NCBI GenBank assembly: GCA_964291285.2 | Contig: OZ219786.1 | Location: 1,024,001 to 1,088,000, forward strand | Direction of reading: 5' to 3' | Source of the DNA: Alphaproteobacteria bacterium | GTDB lineage: Bacteria > Pseudomonadota > Alphaproteobacteria > Bin95 | DNA length: 64,000 bases | Position numbers and translations under genes: made by a program | The notes under the pieces: model-generated | Database searches by the model: none | What the model saw: only the letters and a program-made list of their open reading frames with translations | Told to the model about the DNA's origin: nothing | Part shown: piece after piece, positions 7,013 to 25,790 of the stretch | Position numbering within the stretch: position 1 is the first letter of the stretch | Layout: each line of letters starts with the position of its first letter

Positions 7013-8254
7013 TCAGGCTGCCACGGCGGGCAACTTGACGGTTGTATTGTCGCTCACGGGAGCGATGGATTCCAGCGTCATGTATCTGGCTCTCTGGACT
7101 GCCCATTCATCGTTCTGCTCGAGCAGGATTGCGCCGATCAGCCGGGTGATGGCGTCCTCGTTGGGGAAGATGCCGACGGTGTTTGTGCGCCGCTTGATCT
7201 CGCCGTGGAGGCGTTCGAGCGGGTTTGTCGAGTGCAGCTTGGCGCGGTGCGCGGCCGGGAAGGTCATGTAGGCGAGAACATCGTGCTCGGCCTCGTCCAT
7301 GATGGCGGCGAGCTTTGGCGCCTTGGGCCTGAGCTGGTCGGCGACCTGGCGCCACTGGGCGGAGGCGCTGTCTGCATCCTCCTGGGCGAAGGCGGTAGTG
7401 ACGAAGGCGGAGACGACGCGCCGGCCCTGCTTGCCGGCATGGGCGAGCAGGTTGCGCATGAAGTGGACGCGGCATCTCTGCCAGGTGGCGCCGAAGATGC
7501 GGGTGGCGGCGGCCTTCAGGCCCTTGTGGTCGTCGGAGATCACCAGCTTGACGCCGCGCAGGCCGCGGCGGGCGAGCGAGCGCAGGAAGTCGGTCCAGAA
7601 GGTCTCGGCCTCGGACGCGCCGATCGCCATGCCGAGCACCTCGCGCCGGCCCTGATCGTTGACCGCCACCGCGATGGTGACCGCGACCGAGACGACGCGC
7701 CCGGCCTCGCGCATCTTCACATAGGTCGCGTCAAGCCAGAGATACGGCCAGTCGCCCTCCAGCGGCCGGTCGAGGAAGTCGCGGATCTTGTCGTCGATCT
7801 CGCCGCACAGCCGCGACACCTGGCTCTTGGAGATGCCCGACATGCCCATCGCCTGCACCAGGTCGTCCACCGAGCGGGTCGATACGCCCTTGATGTAGGC
7901 CTCCTGGATCACCGCCGTCAGCGCCTTCTCCGCCATCCGCCGCGGTTCAAGGAAGCCCGGGAAGTAGCTCCCCTTGCGCAGCTTCGGGATCTTCAGTTCG
8001 ACCGTGCCGGCCCGCGTCTCCCAGACCCGGTCCCGGTAGCCGTTGCGCTGCGTGATCCGGTCCGGCGAGCGCTCGCCGTGCGCGGCGCCCGCAAGGCCCT
8101 CAACCTCAAGCGCCATCAGACGCGCGGCCGTGAACCCGATCATCTCGCGAAGCAGGTCGGCGTCGGAACTCTTCTCCAACAGCGCCCGCAGGGTCATCAT
8201 GTCGGTGGTGGTCATCGTGGTACTCCTCCGGTCAGGTGGACTGTGACAGCCCAA
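7013..8254 (-). CDS. IS256-family transposase
   Basis: [51 protein letters not shown] motifs; true start probably a few codons downstream (MTTTDMM). Confidence 0.95.
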
Positions 8255-17110: not shown

Positions 17111-18562
17111 GGTCGTGTCCCCAGGGGTGGTGTAGGAGCTGAAGCTTCCGGTGGTAGCTGTGGGTAAGTGGGCCGCCGCCGCGACCGTCTGGAGTCAGGC
17201 GGCGGCGGGCCACTTACCCACAGCGGAGGCCATCGCGGTGCCGGTTAGGGTTGGGCTGTCACAGTCCACCTGACCGGAGGAGTACCACGATGACCACCAC
17301 CGACATGATGACCCTGCGGGCGCTGTTGGAGAAGAGTTCCGACGCCGACCTGCTTCGCGAGATGATCGGGTTCACGGCCGCGCGTCTGATGGCGCTTGAG
17401 GTTGAGGGCCTTGCGGGCGCCGCGCACGGCGAGCGCTCGCCGGACCGGATCACGCAGCGCAACGGCTACCGGGACCGGGTCTGGGAGACGCGGGCCGGCA
17501 CGGTCGAACTGAAGATCCCGAAGCTGCGCAAGGGGAGCTACTTCCCGGGCTTCCTTGAACCGCGGCGGATGGCGGAGAAGGCGCTGACGGCGGTGATCCA
17601 GGAGGCCTACATCAAGGGCGTATCGACCCGCTCGGTGGACGACCTGGTGCAGGCGATGGGCATGTCGGGCATCTCCAAGAGCCAGGTGTCGCGGCTGTGC
17701 GGCGAGATCGACGACAAGATCCGCGACTTCCTCGACCGGCCGCTGGAGGGCGACTGGCCGTATCTCTGGCTTGACGCGACCTATGTGAAGATGCGCGAGG
17801 CCGGGCGCGTCGTCTCGGTCGCGGTCACCATCGCGGTGGCGGTCAACGATCAGGGCCGGCGCGAGGTGCTCGGCATGGCGATCGGCGCGTCCGAGGCCGA
17901 GACCTTCTGGACCGACTTCCTGCGCTCGCTCGCCCGCCGCGGCCTGCGCGGCGTCAAGCTGGTGATCTCCGACGACCACAAGGGCCTGAAGGCCGCCGCC
18001 ACCCGCATCTTCGGCGCCACCTGGCAGAGATGCCGCGTCCACTTCATGCGCAACCTGCTCGCCCATGCCGGCAAGCAGGGCCGGCGCGTCGTCTCCGCCT
18101 TCGTCACTACCGCCTTCGCCCAGGAGGATGCAGACAGCGCCTCCGCCCAGTGGCGCCAGGTCGCCGACCAGCTCAGGCCCAAGGCGCCAAAGCTCGCCGC
18201 CATCATGGACGAGGCCGAGCACGATGTTCTCGCCTACATGACCTTCCCGGCCGCGCACCGCGCCAAGCTGCACTCGACAAACCCGCTCGAACGCCTCCAC
18301 GGCGAGATCAAGCGGCGCACAAACACCGTCGGCATCTTCCCCAACGAGGACGCCATCACCCGGCTGATCGGCGCAATCCTGCTCGAGCAGAACGATGAAT
18401 GGGCAGTCCAGAGAGCCAGATACATGACGCTGGAATCCATCGCTCCCGTGAGCGACAATACAACCGTCAAGTTGCCCGCCGTGGCAGCCTGAGCGTTCCG
18501 GCCCTACCCGCCGGACACCGCTACGGACGCCAGGCTCTTACACCACCCGCGGGGGCACGATC
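17111..18562 (+). mobile_element. IS256-family insertion sequence, copy 2 (1452 bp, inverted relative to copy 1)
   Basis: Same IRs and identical transposase; 8-bp TSD CCTTTCCT at 17103-17110 and 18563-18570. Confidence 0.95.
17251..18492 (+). CDS. IS256-family transposase (identical protein to copy 1)
   Basis: Identical 413-aa translation in the ORF track. Confidence 0.95.
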
Positions 18563-18875
18563 CCTTTCCTTAGCCCTAGAAACTCCAAACAGGTCAACGC
18601 GTTGCCGCACTACGCAGCGTCGAATCTGCCTACTCAACGACACTTCCGCCCCCCTGCTTTCCCGATGCCAGACAATAATGCCGCTCATCGTGCTTTTTCG
18701 TCAACGCCCGACGCCACAGGATGGCCGCGTGCCAGCATCAGGAAACAAGTCTCGATATCTCTCTTAGTGCTTTGTCAGGTGCAGAGCCACGCGAGGACGG
18801 GGCGGCTGGACGAGGCAGGACAGGCTCCCTACTTTCGATAGCTTCGGGACGACAGCCGTCGAAGGAGGGAGCGCC

Positions 18876-19142
18876 ATGGAAGCCGAGCCCAGGGAGCGAC
18901 TGCATCAGCTGGTGGACGCGCTTCCCACCGGCGAACTCCCGGTCGCCGAGCGCTATCTCGAATTCCTGTCCGGGGTCGGGCATCCGTTCGTTCGCGCGCT
19001 CTTTACCGCCCCCGAGGCTGACGAGCCGCTGAGCCACGGGGACCGCGACGCCCTTGAGGAGGGACGCCGCGCCCTTGACGCCGGCGATACCGTCTCCGAT
19101 CGCGAGTTGCGCAGCCGGGCCTGCCAAGCCGCCCGCCCGTAA
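18876..19142 (+). CDS. Small antitoxin-like protein with no adjacent toxin
   Basis: RERLHQLVDALP...APEADEPLS...EEGRRALDAGDTVS resembles helical antitoxins found before RelE/ParE toxins; strong RBS GGAGGGAG. Confidence 0.55.
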   Translation: MEAEPRERLHQLVDALPTGELPVAERYLEFLSGVGHPFVRALFTAPEADEPLSHGDRDALEEGRRALDAGDTVSDRELRSRACQAARP

Positions 19143-19151
19143 GGCGCGCCG

Positions 19152-19418
19152 CTATTCGCCCGCTTCGGGCGCCGGCTCCCTGCGGCGTATCGAGCCTTCA
19201 AGCAGCCCCTCCACCCGCGCCACACGGTCGGAAAGGCCGCGCAGGTCCGTCGAAACGCGCGCCGAAAGCTCGCTCATATCCTTTGCCAGGCGCTCGGAAA
19301 GGTCCCTGTTGTCCTTCGCCGCGCGCTCGGAGAGGCTGCGCATGTCCCGGTGGATGGTCCACAGGAAACCGATCACGCCGAGCATGAGCCCCGCCAGGAT
19401 GTAAACGCCTTCGTCCAT
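19152..19418 (-). CDS. Small TM plus coiled-coil hypothetical protein
   Basis: MDEGVYILAGLMLGVIGFLW then internally repeated LSER..KD..DLSERLAKD, ending RVARVEGLLEG. Confidence 0.6.
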   Translation of the reverse strand: MDEGVYILAGLMLGVIGFLWTIHRDMRSLSERAAKDNRDLSERLAKDMSELSARVSTDLRGLSDRVARVEGLLEGSIRRREPAPEAGE

Positions 19419-19469
19419 GGTCCCACCGTACCCGCCCTGCGGCTCCCCACGCAAGCTCCGGCCCCCCGG

Positions 19470-21124
<1,655 letters not shown>

Positions 21125-21261
21125 CCGACAACACAGTCGCTCTCCCGTGCATCGGCGGGGGCTCCGGTCGCCGGCCCTCACGCCTTCGGATTGGGGATTA
21201 TCCGTTTGACTAAATATCAGCCCGTCTCCTAGCCTGTGCTCTTCACAGCGGGAGATCAAGC

Positions 21262-22642
21262 ATGGCGAGGAAATCTGATAGGGTAGAAGGCAGGCGACGC
21301 AGCGGCGACGCAGCGGCGACGCAGCGGCGACGCAGCGGCGACGCAGCGGCGACGCAGCGGCGACGCAGCGGCGACGCAGGAAGCCAACTGGCGCAACCGC
21401 ACCATCTGGACGCGCGACAATCTCCATGTCCTGAGAGGCATGAACAGCGCCACGGTTGATCTCATCTATCTCGACCCGCCCTTCAACTCCAACCGCACCT
21501 ATAGCGCACCCATAGGCTCGGAGGCGGCCGGGGCTGCCTTCAAGGACTCATGGACCTTCGACGACGCGGACCGCGTCTATCTGGCACTGCTGCAAGAGCG
21601 TGACCCGACGACTTTCGCCATAATCGACGCGGCCCGGCTGGCGCACGGGCGCGGCATGGCGGCCTATCTCGGCATGATGGCGCAACGCCTCGTCGAAATG
21701 CGGCGTGTCCTGAAGCCGACCGGCAGCATCTATCTGCATTGTGACCCGTTCGCGTCGCATTATCTCAAGATGCTCATGGACGCGATTTTCGGACGCCTTA
21801 ATCACCGGAACGAGATTATCTGGTGCTATACTGGCCCCGGCTCACCGCATATGCGCCAGTTCAACCGAAAGCACGATACAATCCACTGGTATTCAGTCGG
21901 CGAGACATGGACCTTCAATGCCGACGCCGTGCGTATTCAGCACCATGGCAAGACCAAGGCGAATTTCAAAGACGGTTTGCGCGGTTCTGGATTTATCGAG
22001 GGCGAATATGGGCTGACGGACGGCAAAGTCCCTGAAACATGGTGGCCGCAAGAGAAAGGAAATGGACTCGCCATAGCGCCCCGCCAAAAGGCGCAATATG
22101 TCGGCTATCCGACGCAGAAGCCGCTTGCCCTTCTGGACCGCATCATCAAGGCGTCGAGTAACGAGGGCGATGTCGTGCTGGACCCATTTTGCGGTTGCGC
22201 GACGGCCGCCGTGGCGGCGGAGCGGCTACAGCGCCAGTGGATCGGCATCGACATTTCCGCGAAGGCGGCCGAGCTCGTCACGACGCGCCTGCAAGGCATC
22301 CTCGACGAAATCCCGCTCTACAAGACCGGCGATGTTGTCCACAGGACGGACCAGCCGGGCCGCACGGACCTGGGAGACCTTCCCCACTACCGGACGCACC
22401 TGGACTTGCTCTACGGCCAGCAGGAAGGCTTTTGCGGCGGTTGCGGGGAGCATTTCCGCAAGCGCAATCTGACGGTGGACCATATCGTCCCGCAAGCGCA
22501 TGGCGGGACCGACCACCTTGAGAACCTTTGGCTGCTGTGCGGCGCCTGCAATTCGTCGAAGGGAACGCGCTCGCAAGAGCAATTCCTGAAAGAGCGTATG
22601 CAGAAGCGCGCCGCCCTGTTCCCGTGGCTGATAGAGGCGTGA
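21262..22642 (+). CDS. N6-adenine/N4-cytosine DNA methyltransferase (beta-type motif order) fused to a C-terminal HNH domain; currently frameshifted at the repeat tract
   Basis: DLIYLDPPF, SIYLHCD, RNEIIW, YPTQKP, VLDPFCGCAT, WIGID; HNH domain CGGC...VDHIVPQAHGGTDHLENLWLLCGACNSSKG. The conserved N-terminal NWRNRTIWTRDNL lies upstream of ATG 21440, and the RBS-preceded ATG 21262 is out of frame. Confidence 0.85.
21293..21379 (+). repeat. Perfect 11-bp tandem repeat (GGCGACGCAGC) x7 plus a 10/11 partial copy, inside the 5' coding region of the MTase
   Basis: Read directly from the sequence; no spacers; no stop codon in any frame. Confidence 0.97.
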
Positions 22643-23611
22643 CTAGTATGGCCGCGCCCCGCTCGCCAGCCCGTTCTCGGCAATCAGCCGGGCGTAGGTC
22701 AGGCGCTTCCCGACCATGCCGGCCGCCAGTCCCGCCATTTGTGCCAGCGTCCCGGCTTCGCGGATGTTGTGCCGCCCGGCGAACTCCGCGATGTAGCGGT
22801 GAAGGTGCTTCGGCGAGAACTTGTGATAGACGCCCTTGTGCGCCCGCTTCAACATGGCCCAGAAGCTCTCGATCCCGTTGGTATGCGCCTGCTGGCGGAC
22901 ATACTCGCCAGCGGAGTGATTGACCGCTTCATGCTGAAACCACACTTGCAGCGCCCGATAGACCGTCGCCTCGTCCGAATAGACCGTCGTGCCGATGCGG
23001 GCGTTGTGAGCGGCGAAGCCTGCCAGCGACGGCGCGTCCGCGTGCTGGACATGGCGGGCGCGAACCTGCTTCGTGCCCCGGTCCTTCACGCCAACGACAA
23101 TGTCCTTGCCGACAGCGCCGCGACCCTCAAGGCTCTCCCGCTTCGCCTTGTGCATGTTCTTGCGCAGCCCGCCCAGATAGACCTCGTCCACCTCTACCGG
23201 CCCGTCCATGGGCGGCTCGTCGTCGCGCTTGAAGGCTTCGCGGATGCGCTGGAGCATGAACCATGCGGTTGCCTGCCGGACGCCTATGTCCCGGCTCAGC
23301 TTCACGCTGGAGACGCCCTTGAGCGAAGTCAGGTGCAGGTAGATCGCCCAAACCCACTTGCGGAACGAGAGCTTGGACCGCTCCATGACGGTGCCGATGC
23401 GGACGCTGAAATGCCGCTTGCAGCCGGGGCAGTAGTAGGGCATCGGCGGGTTGCCGGTGCATTCAATCGTCTCGGTATGGCCGCAGCGCGGGCAATGGCG
23501 ACCGTTCGGCCAGACCTTCGCCTCAAACCATTCGCGGGCGCTTTCCTCGGTCGGGAACATCTCTCCCAACTCCATGATGGTCACGCCTTCGCGGTAGTGC
23601 TTGCCAGCCAT
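22643..23611 (-). CDS. IS1595-family transposase
   Basis: Zn finger CPRC...YYCPGC, VEVDEVYLGG, VYSDE, VNHSAGEYV, HTNGIESFWAMLKR, HLHRYIAEF. Confidence 0.95.
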   Translation of the reverse strand: MAGKHYREGVTIMELGEMFPTEESAREWFEAKVWPNGRHCPRCGHTETIECTGNPPMPYYCPGCKRHFSVRIGTVMERSKLSFRKWVWAIYLHLTSLKGVSSVKLSRDIGVRQATAWFMLQRIREAFKRDDEPPMDGPVEVDEVYLGGLRKNMHKAKRESLEGRGAVGKDIVVGVKDRGTKQVRARHVQHADAPSLAGFAAHNARIGTTVYSDEATVYRALQVWFQHEAVNHSAGEYVRQQAHTNGIESFWAMLKRAHKGVYHKFSPKHLHRYIAEFAGRHNIREAGTLAQMAGLAAGMVGKRLTYARLIAENGLASGARPY

Positions 23612-23683
23612 GACGGCCTCCGTTCCGACTGCTTGAGTCAGAATATGGGGACTCGCCGTCATTTAGTCAAGCGGATAATCCCC

Positions 23684-25058
23684 CAGTAATGCGCGCCAGA
23701 ACCGTATCCGGCCCGACGATCCGGGCGACATAGCTCAGGCCGAAGCCCGACGAGACCGTGCCAGGCGTCAGCGACACCGACTCGCGTCCTTCGCCCAGCG
23801 TCGTGCTGATCTCCTTGAGATAGGCTCGATCCAACAGGTCGTAGAACTGCGACGGTCTACCTGCGAGGCTGGCAAGCTCGAACGACTTGACCCGCCAGAC
23901 CTTGCCGACGCTGTTCATCGCATCGACCGTTGCCTGCAGGCTCGAACTATTCCGGAAGGACGGCGTGACTACCGACACGCCGCCCCCGGAGATCACGACG
24001 TCTACCGACGAACCGAACAGCTTCGGCAATACGCCCGACAGTCCGATCTCGAAATCATGCGCCCGGTCGAACTGCACCGAATAAAGGTAGATCGAGAGCG
24101 ACACCGGCCGCAGCGTGTGCCGGTCCAGATGCTGCAGATAGTCCCGGACTCTGGCAACCGCCCTCGGAGCGCCCCGCACGCTTACCGTCCCGGACGACTC
24201 CGATACCAGCACCTCGGCGCCATCCCCGGCCGCGTCGCAAACGAGATCGGTAATCTCCTCCCACGGCTTGTATTCCATGGAAGCGTCCAGCGACTGCTTC
24301 GTGCCCCCCGAAGTCTCCTCGCCCGCCTCGGCCTCCGTCGACACCTTCACATCGTATTTTTGCGTTCCGACCAGTGCATTGATGCTGAAGGTGCGGCTCT
24401 CGGAGCGCACGATGTCGATCGCCCCTGAAACCTCGTCGTATCGCCAGAACCAGCCCAACTCCCCGGTCCACACTTCAAGCAGACGATCCAATGGCCCCGT
24501 CCACACGCCGCTGTCCGGCACCAGCTCGTCCGTCAGCGATTGCATCCATTCGGAGCTCTCGCCCGACCGCCGCAACGCAGCACTTTCGCAAGAGCCGTGG
24601 CCTTCCGCCCTCGGCTTGTCTTCCTCTCCGACCCACCGGACAACCAGCCCGGAGGCTACAGCGATCCGACGCCGCAACACCTCCGTAGCCTCCTCCGGAG
24701 ACACCTCTGGAGACACCAAGTCACCCACCGGCACAGTCACGCCGACTTCGCTGACCAGATCCTCGGGTAGTGGTGCCGCTTCGGTCTGCACCGCCGACAG
24801 CGCGAGATAAGGCGCCGCAGACTCCCGAAGCGACCGAAAGCCGGAACGGTCGGGACCAGAGGGCCGCAGCTCCCTTACTTTCTGCTCGATGGCTGCCTTG
24901 TTTTCCGGGTCCCCCTCAGACTCCGCCCAGCCGCAGCCTGCCACCCACCAGCACGCCGCAAGAAGCGCAGCAAACTCAATTCCGCGACGCCCACAAATCC
25001 CGCCACCGAATGACAGACTGTTGACAACTCTCGGCGAATCCAACAGTACCTCTCCCAT
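23684..25058 (-). pseudogene. Type IVB pilus secretin (PilN/BfpB-like), C-terminally truncated at the IS1595 end
   Basis: WTGPLDRLLE...WRYD...SRTFSINAL...SESSGTVSVRG...RPVSLSIYLYSVQ...AYLKEISTT...LTPGTVSSGF; the reading frame runs into the IS IR; no other pil genes nearby; start uncertain. Confidence 0.65.
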
Positions 25059-25082
25059 GTCCACTGCCGGGAAAGGTGTGGT

Positions 25083-25108
25083 GGTAGGAAAATGCTGTAT
25101 TTCCTACC
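25083..25108. other. att-like site: 9-bp inverted arms around an 8-bp spacer at the island/host junction
   Basis: GGTAGGAAA-ATGCTGTA-TTTCCTACC, exactly at the truncation point of the downstream hydratase gene. Confidence 0.5.
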
Positions 25109-25790
25109 GCGCTTCGAGCAGGCGGAGCTGGGGCCGGACGGGGCGCCCGCCTCCTCCGGCGTGATCCCGGAAATGCCGTTCCCGCGCCGCATGTACGCCG
25201 GCACGCGCCTCGCCTTCCACGAACCCATCCGCATCGGCGACCGGCTGCACCGGGAGACGGAGCTTGTGGAGCTCGCCGTCAAGGACGGCAGCACCGGCCG
25301 CCTCGCCTTCGCAACGGTCGAAAGCCGCATCTCGACGCCGCGCGGCCTCGCCGTGGTCGAGCAGCGCGACACGGTCTATCGCGAGGAGACGCCGGCCGGC
25401 GCCACGAACAGGGCGCCCAAGCGCGCCGCGCCGCCCGACGACATCGCATGGGAGGCAGAGGAGCGCCCGGACGAGGTCACGCTGTTCCGCTTCTCGGCGC
25501 TCACTTTCAACGCCCACCGCATCCATTACGACGCGGTCTGGGCGAAGGAGGTGGAGGGCTATCCGGCGCTGGTCGTCCACGGGCCGCTCTCGCAGTCCTA
25601 CCTGATGAACTTCGCCCGCGACTGCATGGCCCCGAGGCGCATGACCTCCTTCGACATGCGGGCGCGCGCGCCGCTCTTCATCGACAGGCCGGTGCGGCTG
25701 GTCGGCAAGCCGGTGGACGGCGGCTGCGAGGTCTGGGCGGTGACGCCGGAGGGGACCATCGCGATGAGCGCCTCGGCGGGTTTCGCCTGA
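25092..25790 (+). pseudogene. MaoC/FAS1-type hydratase (mesaconyl-C4-CoA hydratase-like), apparently lacking its N-terminus
   Basis: LYFLP...LGPDG...PRRMYAG...LFRFSALTFNAHRIHYD...GYPALVVHGPL; family members normally have roughly 50 or more residues before LYFLP. Confidence 0.7.

Follow-up and report, generated by a model that had tools for sequence, protein, structure and literature searches.

Why should a gene for a DNA methyltransferase (MTase) fused to an HNH nuclease domain have a perfect array of an 11-bp unit lodged between its start codon and its body, in a copy number that puts the two in different frames? The locus lies in a 64,000-nucleotide stretch of an alphaproteobacterial genome (assembly GCA_964291285.2, contig OZ219786.1, positions 1,024,001 to 1,088,000; hereafter the window, whose numbering is used unless a contig of the genome is named). 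An initial annotation made from the letters alone had proposed that the array is a translational switch, currently OFF, and the explanation favoured here is likewise that it is probably a slippage-driven frameshift ON/OFF switch (contingency locus) of the MTase-HNH gene. The gene structure described in that annotation stood; what it missed is that the gene is carried by an insertion sequence (IS) of the IS1595 family, present in four copies in the genome.

The repeat array and its reading frames

The array occupies positions 21293-21379 of the plus strand and was delimited by Tandem Repeats Finder as 7.9 copies of the unit GGCGACGCAGC (period 11, 100% matches), comprising seven full units and 10 of the 11 bases of an eighth. 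The exact 11-mer occurs seven times on the plus strand within the array and once elsewhere in the window (42710, minus strand); shuffled sequences give an expectation of 0.26 per window, and eight matches were reached in 0 of 100 shuffles. A Shine-Dalgarno sequence GGGAG (21250-21254) lies 7 nt upstream of an ATG at 21262 (together 21250-21264, plus strand), which opens the frame MARKSDRVEG(RRRSGDAAATQ)n..., terminated by a stop codon at 21457-21459 and encoding, in the present OFF state, 65 aa (21262-21459, plus strand, by translation). The MTase frame contains a TAG at 21284, is open thereafter to 22642, and has its first ATG, GTG or TTG at ATG 21440. The interval between the array and this ATG (21380-21439, plus strand) holds twenty conserved MTase N-terminal codons (EANWRNRTIWTRDNLHVLRG), which were recognized by comparison with the related locus L052 and are joined to no start codon here, while the rest of the frame (21440-22642, plus strand) encodes 400 aa. 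Repeat coordinates, start codon and both frames are thus as initially annotated.

No stop codon occurs within the array in any of the three frames (cycle RRRSGDAAATQ), the unit length of 11 bp is not divisible by three, and the start codon lies upstream, which is the configuration of a phase-variable tract. The distance from 21262 to 21440 is 178 nt, or 1 mod 3, and by computation the two share a frame at 3, 6, 9 or 12 units, whereas 2 and 8 units put them in different ones, in agreement with the earlier arithmetic of one copy number in three being ON. For units of 3 nt or more, the available text of the survey of Type III mod genes by Atack et al. (PMC5909438) takes at least three units as its slippage criterion, and the array has 7.9 perfect ones.

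The product is predicted to be a β-class N6/N4 DNA methyltransferase with a C-terminal HNH nuclease. It matches Pfam N6_N4_Mtase (PF01555) with 157.7 bits (cut-off 26.7) over approximately 21455-22276, and HNH (PF01844) with 52.5 bits (cut-off 21.4) over approximately 22433-22570; a DPPF motif and the CxxC...DH...N...CxxC motif of HNH are visible in the translation. The closest solved relatives of the MTase are the β-class enzymes M.RsrI, M.MboIIA and CcrM, the HNH domain is most like that of IscB/Cas9, and the PADLOC MTase_III models match residues 3-308 of the window protein. When ON, the enzyme would presumably act as a one-protein methylase-nuclease, methylating and cutting DNA.

In the proposed mechanism, the array sits in a short leader between ATG 21262 and the conserved MTase-HNH body. 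The unit is 2 mod 3, so a change of one unit alters the frame, and gain or loss of units by slipped-strand mispairing would move the start into or out of the enzyme frame. Arrays of 3, 6 or 9 units would yield the full protein MARKSDRVEG-(RRRSGDAAATQ)n-EANWRNRTIW..., presumably in active form; at 2 or 8 units, translation from ATG 21262 would end early, and the enzyme would not be made. Slippage would be expected to occur at an appreciable, useful rate in living cells, with OFF as the likely favoured resting state because the enzyme is presumably costly.

A passenger of an insertion sequence in four copies

A blastn search of positions 18500-25500 against the genome from which the window comes (6.1 Mb, five contigs), together with alignment of the copies, delimits 21193-23683 as a discrete mobile element of 2,491 bp in four copies. 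Copy A is that of the window, copy B lies at C3:1312203-1314693 (99.92% identical over 2,491 bp), and copies C (C3:664915-662489) and D (C3:2119244-2121671) each fall short of this length by 66 bp. The element has sharp ends, with GGGGATTATCCG(T/C)TTGACTAAAT at each end in inverted orientation, and terminal inverted repeats with 37-nt arms that are 81% complementary. Target duplications of 8 bp, which are typical of the IS1595 family, are found at copy B (TAACCAAA) and copy C (GCTTTTTT). The element contains two convergent genes, the MTase-HNH gene on the plus strand and a 339-aa transposase on the minus strand (22643-23662), the latter matched by Pfam DDE_Tnp_IS1595 (PF12762, 133.1 bits, cut-off 27), Zn_ribbon_IS1595 (PF12760, 33.1 bits, cut-off 25.4) and NCBIfam transpos_IS1595 (NF033547, 185 bits, cut-off 75). 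As a discrete unit with inverted repeats, 8-bp duplications and a zinc-ribbon transposase of this family, present in multiple copies at different sites, the element is therefore an IS1595-family IS, and the MTase-HNH gene is its passenger and no chromosomal resident. Since the gene rides on the IS, each element copy would carry its own switch.

The four copies differ in the length of the array. Copies A and B have 8 units and copies C and D have 2, the 66-bp gap corresponding to exactly six units. Apart from the array, no difference separates copies B, C and D anywhere in the element, and copy A has two private substitutions. A change of six units while about 2.4 kb gained no point change is the signature of a hypermutable tract. 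All four copies are out of frame, with truncated products of 65 aa (8 units) and 43 aa (2 units), so the gene is currently OFF in each, as had been read from the window alone. The 2-unit form was also found exactly in an independent short-read Logan contig of a public sequencing run (X1, probably of the source sample), in which the joint 21292->21359 skips 66 bases; a 41-nt pure-repeat unitig in the same run indicates that a longer array is present in the reads too, although X1 is known as assembled contigs and 31-mer unitigs, in which rare variants are dropped and an exact count of 8 is beyond reach. Invariance of copy number, which the initial annotation had set beforehand as speaking against a switch, is thus not what was found: the copies have 8, 8, 2 and 2 units, and the X1 contig supports 2.

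Three further runs touch the locus, and no RNA run is listed among those containing the stretch. In X3, a run from a coral-reef metagenome, one unitig of 41 nt matches the pure 11-mer array exactly (window 21295-21335), and the same unit is therefore tandem in at least one other sample. Two runs with the same organism label (X2 and X4) cover only the end of the neighbouring IS110 element and the conserved DPPF region; no further conclusion was drawn from X2, X4 or X3.

Within the element the array occurs only once, about 100 bp inside its left end. The left terminal inverted repeat (21193-21229, plus strand; inverted-repeat search) begins GGGGATTATCCG... and contains TTGACT, and the same end is found upstream of L052. 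The right terminal inverted repeat lies at 23647-23683 (minus strand; inverted-repeat search and copy alignment). A promoter scan found a promoter-like TTGACT-17-CATATT on the transposase side (23670-23642, minus strand) and no consensus promoter for the MTase gene; read by eye, the TTGACT of the left inverted repeat is a possible -35 box for the latter, with a weak TAGCCT box. Copies A and D have swapped 8-bp flanks (window 21185-21192 and 23684-23691, compared with the flanks of 2119244-2121671 on contig C3), the left flank of A (TTCGGATT) being the right flank of D and the left flank of D (CAGTAATG) the right flank of A. The swap indicates recombination between these two copies, which lie on contigs C2 and C3, either through a reciprocal exchange of the replicons or as a chimera made in assembly.

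Close copies of the element were absent from 36 other genomes of the same family, where the best match was 72% identical over part of the query; a plasmid collection gave only 6 weak partial matches to the element, and viral contigs gave only distant MTases without HNH. The association of such MTase genes with IS1595 transposases extends further. It was examined in 160 related loci, 80 of them in species-representative genomes and the other 80 in metagenomes, mostly from sponge- or coral-type symbiont metagenome-assembled genomes (MAGs). A tblastn match to the window transposase lies within 3 kb of the MTase at 34 of the 80 genome loci and 2 of the 80 metagenome loci, the usual order being transposase then MTase, co-directional. 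Loci L044 and L045 are complete elements (inverted repeat, transposase, MTase-HNH, inverted repeat) with the same GGGGATTAT ends. In L071 (contig C1 of genome G039), ends of the form GGGGATTAT... and ...ATAATCCCC surround the MTase-HNH gene alone, over 1,385 bp (approximately -105 to +1279) without a transposase; judged by its ends, this unit looks like a transposase-less mobile cassette. The genome of the window itself holds a three-copy transposase-then-MTase unit (C1:811308-813214, C2:1112344-1114250 and C3:1207931-1209837), whose MTase is 27% identical to that of the window, and, at C5:334571-336865, a transposase followed by an MTase-HNH gene 50% identical to it; in these units, too, the two genes are co-directional.

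Start codon, related loci and rival explanations

The position of the start codon was judged from the 120 best homologue matches. At least 94 of these start a few residues before a near-invariant NWxNRTIWTGDNL segment. P0004 (74% identical) starts with MARKSSGLERGQSGSPAVREEASRNW..., at the same MARKS start position, and reads in frame into NWHNRTIW; its N-terminus (MARKSSGLERGQSGSPAVREEASRNWHNRTIW) gives a leader approximately as long as a 3-unit version of the window leader. L179 starts at the same position with MARKRTTVEEGQSGS..., that is MARKRTTVEE followed by an 8-mer array, and P0121 has an in-frame GQSGSPAVRQ followed by EANWRNRTIW. Because P0004 and L179 begin with MARKS or MARK at the same position, ATG 21262 is the ancestral start of the MTase-HNH gene. 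Five homologues (P0001, 93% identical, P0002, P0005, P0015 and P0017) are annotated from the internal Met equivalent to ATG 21440, as would be expected of a gene caller faced with an OFF allele. A search with the L119 leader gave two protein matches, one unrelated and the other (P0123) being L179 called from an in-frame GTG; this GTG overlaps the ribosome-binding site of the MARK start and is probably incidental.

The disconnected codons are constrained. In the 20 codons that separate the array from ATG 21440, comparison with L052, another OFF allele, gives 6 synonymous differences and no non-synonymous one; amino-acid differences number 0 of 19 in the MTase frame, as opposed to 7 and 6 of 19 in the two alternative frames. 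The OFF alleles of the window, L052, L119, L179 and L081 keep open frames of 420-495 aa. Ratios of non-synonymous to synonymous substitution rates (dN/dS) for five OFF-OFF pairs, drawn from all of these except L081, are 0.18 (window-L052), 0.20 (window-L119), 0.25 (L052-L119), 0.24 (window-L179) and 0.30 (L119-L179), and that obtained against L039, which was read as ON, is 0.10. The disconnected N-terminus is thus still under selection as protein, and for this, translation must sometimes enter from upstream through the array. That the product starting at ATG 21440 is the normal form, named in the initial annotation as a possible refutation, is contradicted by the 94 or more upstream starts and by the purely synonymous differences from L052.

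Repeats recur at the same spot in relatives. Perfect repeats were scanned in 160 nt around the start of the conserved segment at the 154 loci whose match starts in the first 15 residues. Simple sequence repeats (SSRs) were present in the leader at 12 of these 154 loci, compared with 100 of 5,378 equally sized background windows taken from those loci (Fisher p=6e-5); for loci at least 50% identical, the count is 10 of 49 (p=3e-8), the loci being not all independent. The units vary: GGCAGTCC is repeated 8.4 times in L052 (which has the same IS end motif), 12.1 times in L119 and 7.6 times in L179; GACAGTCC is repeated 5.6 times in L081; poly-C tracts of 8-14 are present in L039, L067, L071, L072 and L088; and CAGTC is repeated 14.6 times in L253. 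Closest to the window unit is GCGGCGAAGCA, repeated 2.8 times in L063, where it is one base off a rotation of that unit, and 1.9 times in L079, where it is two bases off. The near-identical 11-mer GCGGCGAAGCA occurs in a Dehalococcoidia genome, and the 11-mer is therefore not unique to this lineage. No leader tract seen at the DNA level has a unit whose length is a multiple of three, and triplet-compatible leader repeats were seen only as 7-aa (21-bp) repeats in the proteins P0013 and P0023. As an observation apart, L063 carries, just ahead of the 11-mer array (-75 to -36, counted from the MTase start), a perfect 20-bp duplication of the ribosome-binding site with its start codon, giving two candidate starts in different frames.

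Alleles in both states were found for related poly-C or 8-mer genes, and not for the 11-mer of the window. In G039, two copies of one element differ only by a tract of 13 C (MMTEAPPPPIHRANF..., L071, in frame) as opposed to 14 C (L072, out of frame). The genome of the window contains a 45%-identical MTase-HNH family with three copies on contig C3, in which a poly-C tract follows the start MPKRST and is in frame at ten C (two copies) and out of frame at nine C (one copy). These copies (C3:12448, C3:786194 and C3:1271566, with ten, ten and nine C, respectively) also have (CG)n tracts of 6, 5 and 6 in an upstream open reading frame (ORF), so there are two variable tracts per copy. In a sponge-type alphaproteobacterial MAG (G038), loci L234-L248 comprise at least 15 MTase paralogues whose leaders and N-termini are 86-89% identical and whose bodies are 40-63% identical to that of the window; the pattern suggests a common switch cassette placed before diversified specificities. 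The paralogues have 1.6 (two copies), 2.6 (two), 3.6 (one), 4.6 (three) or 5.6 (seven) units of GACAGTCC, and only the 3.6-unit copy (L247) is in frame; L235 is without a start, and L242, which stops in the leader, was counted as OFF. A further paralogue in G038 has pentamer arrays of CAGTC (14.6 copies) and AGTCC (8.6 copies).

Taken together, the phase-variable reading of the initial annotation is borne out by the length polymorphism, the conserved start and the ON and OFF relatives, and falls short in that no ON allele of the 11-mer was found and that switching within a clone is something we infer. Several observations weigh against it. Arrays of 8 and 2 units share one phase, and the only length change observed has therefore switched nothing, and the X1 contigs show the 2-unit form and the pure-repeat unitig and no other length. 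None of the four copies is ON, and the alleles with 6 or 9 units that would give a continuous ORF were found neither among these copies nor among 5.8 billion proteins, where a search with the window leader region yielded 3 matches from 1,007 candidates, none with an in-frame GDAAATQ-type leader peptide. Repeat-bearing alleles read by eye number approximately 5 ON to 26 OFF, below the one third expected at random, the related alleles being not independent, and only 1 of 15 is ON in G038. The Pfam MTase domain starts just after ATG 21440, and a truncated product would hold the whole domain.

Much of this would also follow from one-way decay, in which a selfish and possibly toxic passenger with a slippage-prone leader was inactivated by the host or by drift and the arrays are mutational debris that serves no reversible, adaptive switching. 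Decay, which we consider unlikely although it is the rival with most in its favour, fits the OFF state of all four copies, the missing ON 11-mer and the excess of OFF alleles in relatives, as well as the shortness of every ON 8-mer allele found (3 units in P0004 and P0121, 3.6 in L247) and the premature stop after 139 aa in L066, a close relative without a repeat. It sits poorly with OFF alleles of different lineages that keep frames of 420-495 aa at dN/dS of 0.18-0.30, with the constraint on 20 codons cut off from any start, with arrays that are 100% perfect, which points to ongoing slippage, and with DNA-level leader tracts that are all non-triplet and at the same position despite different unit sequences. 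The OFF excess itself fits either counter-selection of a costly enzyme or decay, and the selection data tend to favour counter-selection.

That the array has some other function and the frame is incidental seems improbable. It might be a site for the transposase or a host factor, a promoter spacer, or part of a leader ORF coupled to ATG 21440, with the 400-aa form as the normal product. In its favour, some 100 bp separate the array from the left IS end, the stop of the leader ORF comes 20 nt after ATG 21440, the Pfam domain begins after the Met of that codon, and the change from 8 to 2 units keeps the phase of the leader ORF. Yet position and non-triplet length are conserved while the unit sequence is not (poly-C, 5-, 8- and 11-mers), the array does not recur at the right end of the element, conservation at the protein level extends to the N-terminal 20 codons, GAGAGG is spaced only 1 nt from ATG 21440, and OFF alleles occur in both wrong phases (by eye, approximately 17 in phase 1 and 10 in phase 2). 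On this last ground, programmed ribosomal frameshifting and any single geometry of coupling were rejected. Least credible, to the point of being nearly negligible, is an assembly artefact concealing a true array length at which the gene is stably in frame. Miscounts of tandem repeats do happen, and an exact count of 8 lies beyond 31-mer unitigs; against this, two copies were independently assembled with 8 units and two with 2, the X1 contig has the exact 2-unit form and its 41-nt unitig shows a longer array too, and an error of one whole 11-bp unit would be needed at every locus. The miscount allowed for in the initial annotation is accordingly unlikely, two alleles in four copies being all out of frame. 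The slippage-driven switch therefore remains the explanation that we favour.

Known systems and wider reading

The surroundings of the element are dense in other ISs. Directly upstream is an unrelated IS110-family element (19995-21148, plus strand) with at least 13 near-identical copies in the genome, and the window also contains two genes for IS256/Mutator-type transposases (7013-8254, minus strand, and 17251-18492, plus strand) whose ends recur at least 17 times.

Among known systems, the locus most invites comparison with Type III mod genes. As far as the available text of the survey by Atack et al. (PMC5909438) describes them, these genes share with that of the window an SSR in the 5' coding part of a Mod-like β-class MTase, non-triplet units and a tract of varying length, and they switch ON and OFF by frameshift, as is proposed here; the units analysed in that text were of 1-9 nt. 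By contrast, the window unit is 11 bp and those of relatives 8 bp, the MTase is fused to HNH, and the gene is IS-borne and multi-copy. There is no res gene as in Type III restriction-modification, the neighbours in the window being the IS110 and IS1595 transposases, and the locus is therefore not a Type III system. The host also differs from the small-genome pathogens that carry Type III mod genes, having a genome of 6.1 Mb and relatives that are marine or sponge-associated.

The Type IIG enzyme of Campylobacter jejuni has a homopolymeric tract, an N-terminal PD-(D/E)XK nuclease and a γ-class MTase. To judge from the available text of PMC4889913, it resembles the window enzyme in combining nuclease and methylase in one polypeptide with a repeat-tract switch; unlike it, the window enzyme has a β-class MTase and a C-terminal HNH, and is IS-borne.

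As for the carrier, 'transporter IS' of the IS1595 family with passenger genes were reportedly described by Siguier, Gagnevin and Chandler in 2009. They are known as a class, as cited in the available texts of PMC3129680 and PMC7986276, and the element resembles them, within what these texts describe, in its DDE transposase with an N-terminal zinc ribbon, inverted repeats, 8-bp duplications and an extra gene inside. It differs from them in that the passenger is a repeat-switched MTase-HNH gene. In the literature searched, to which ISfinder and the 2009 IS1595 tables did not belong, no report was found of an IS1595 element with an MTase passenger; the literature search likewise returned no report of phase-variable MTase-HNH genes or of sponge symbionts with phase-variable methylases.

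A wider reading can be put forward, tentatively and as a possibility that we would not bet on. In this reading, IS1595-type elements and transposase-less cassettes with GGGGATTAT ends would carry a methylase-HNH gene kept silent yet revivable by a non-triplet repeat, and their multiplied copies, such as the 15 or more of G038, would amount to a mobile combinatorial repertoire for epigenetic regulation or defence, a 'jumping phasevarion'. With OFF as the default, the element could arrive in an unmethylated genome without lethal effect, and the methylase might mark the ends of the element itself and thereby time its transposition. Host Dam methylation times the transposition of IS10.

Repeat-driven methylase switching is well established, mainly for the Type I and Type III systems found in host-adapted pathogens, where units measure 1-5 bases. 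Here the same switch logic would operate with 8- and 11-base units, in an uncharacterised methylase-HNH fusion inside an insertion sequence, and in large-genome marine or sponge-associated bacteria, one genome of which can hold many independently switched copies. If the switch is functional, repeat surveys limited to units of up to 9 nt would miss such loci, and annotation pipelines would systematically mis-call such genes as N-terminally truncated, several relatives being begun at an internal Met. It would also mean that stochastic epigenetic or restriction switches can travel as part of mobile elements.

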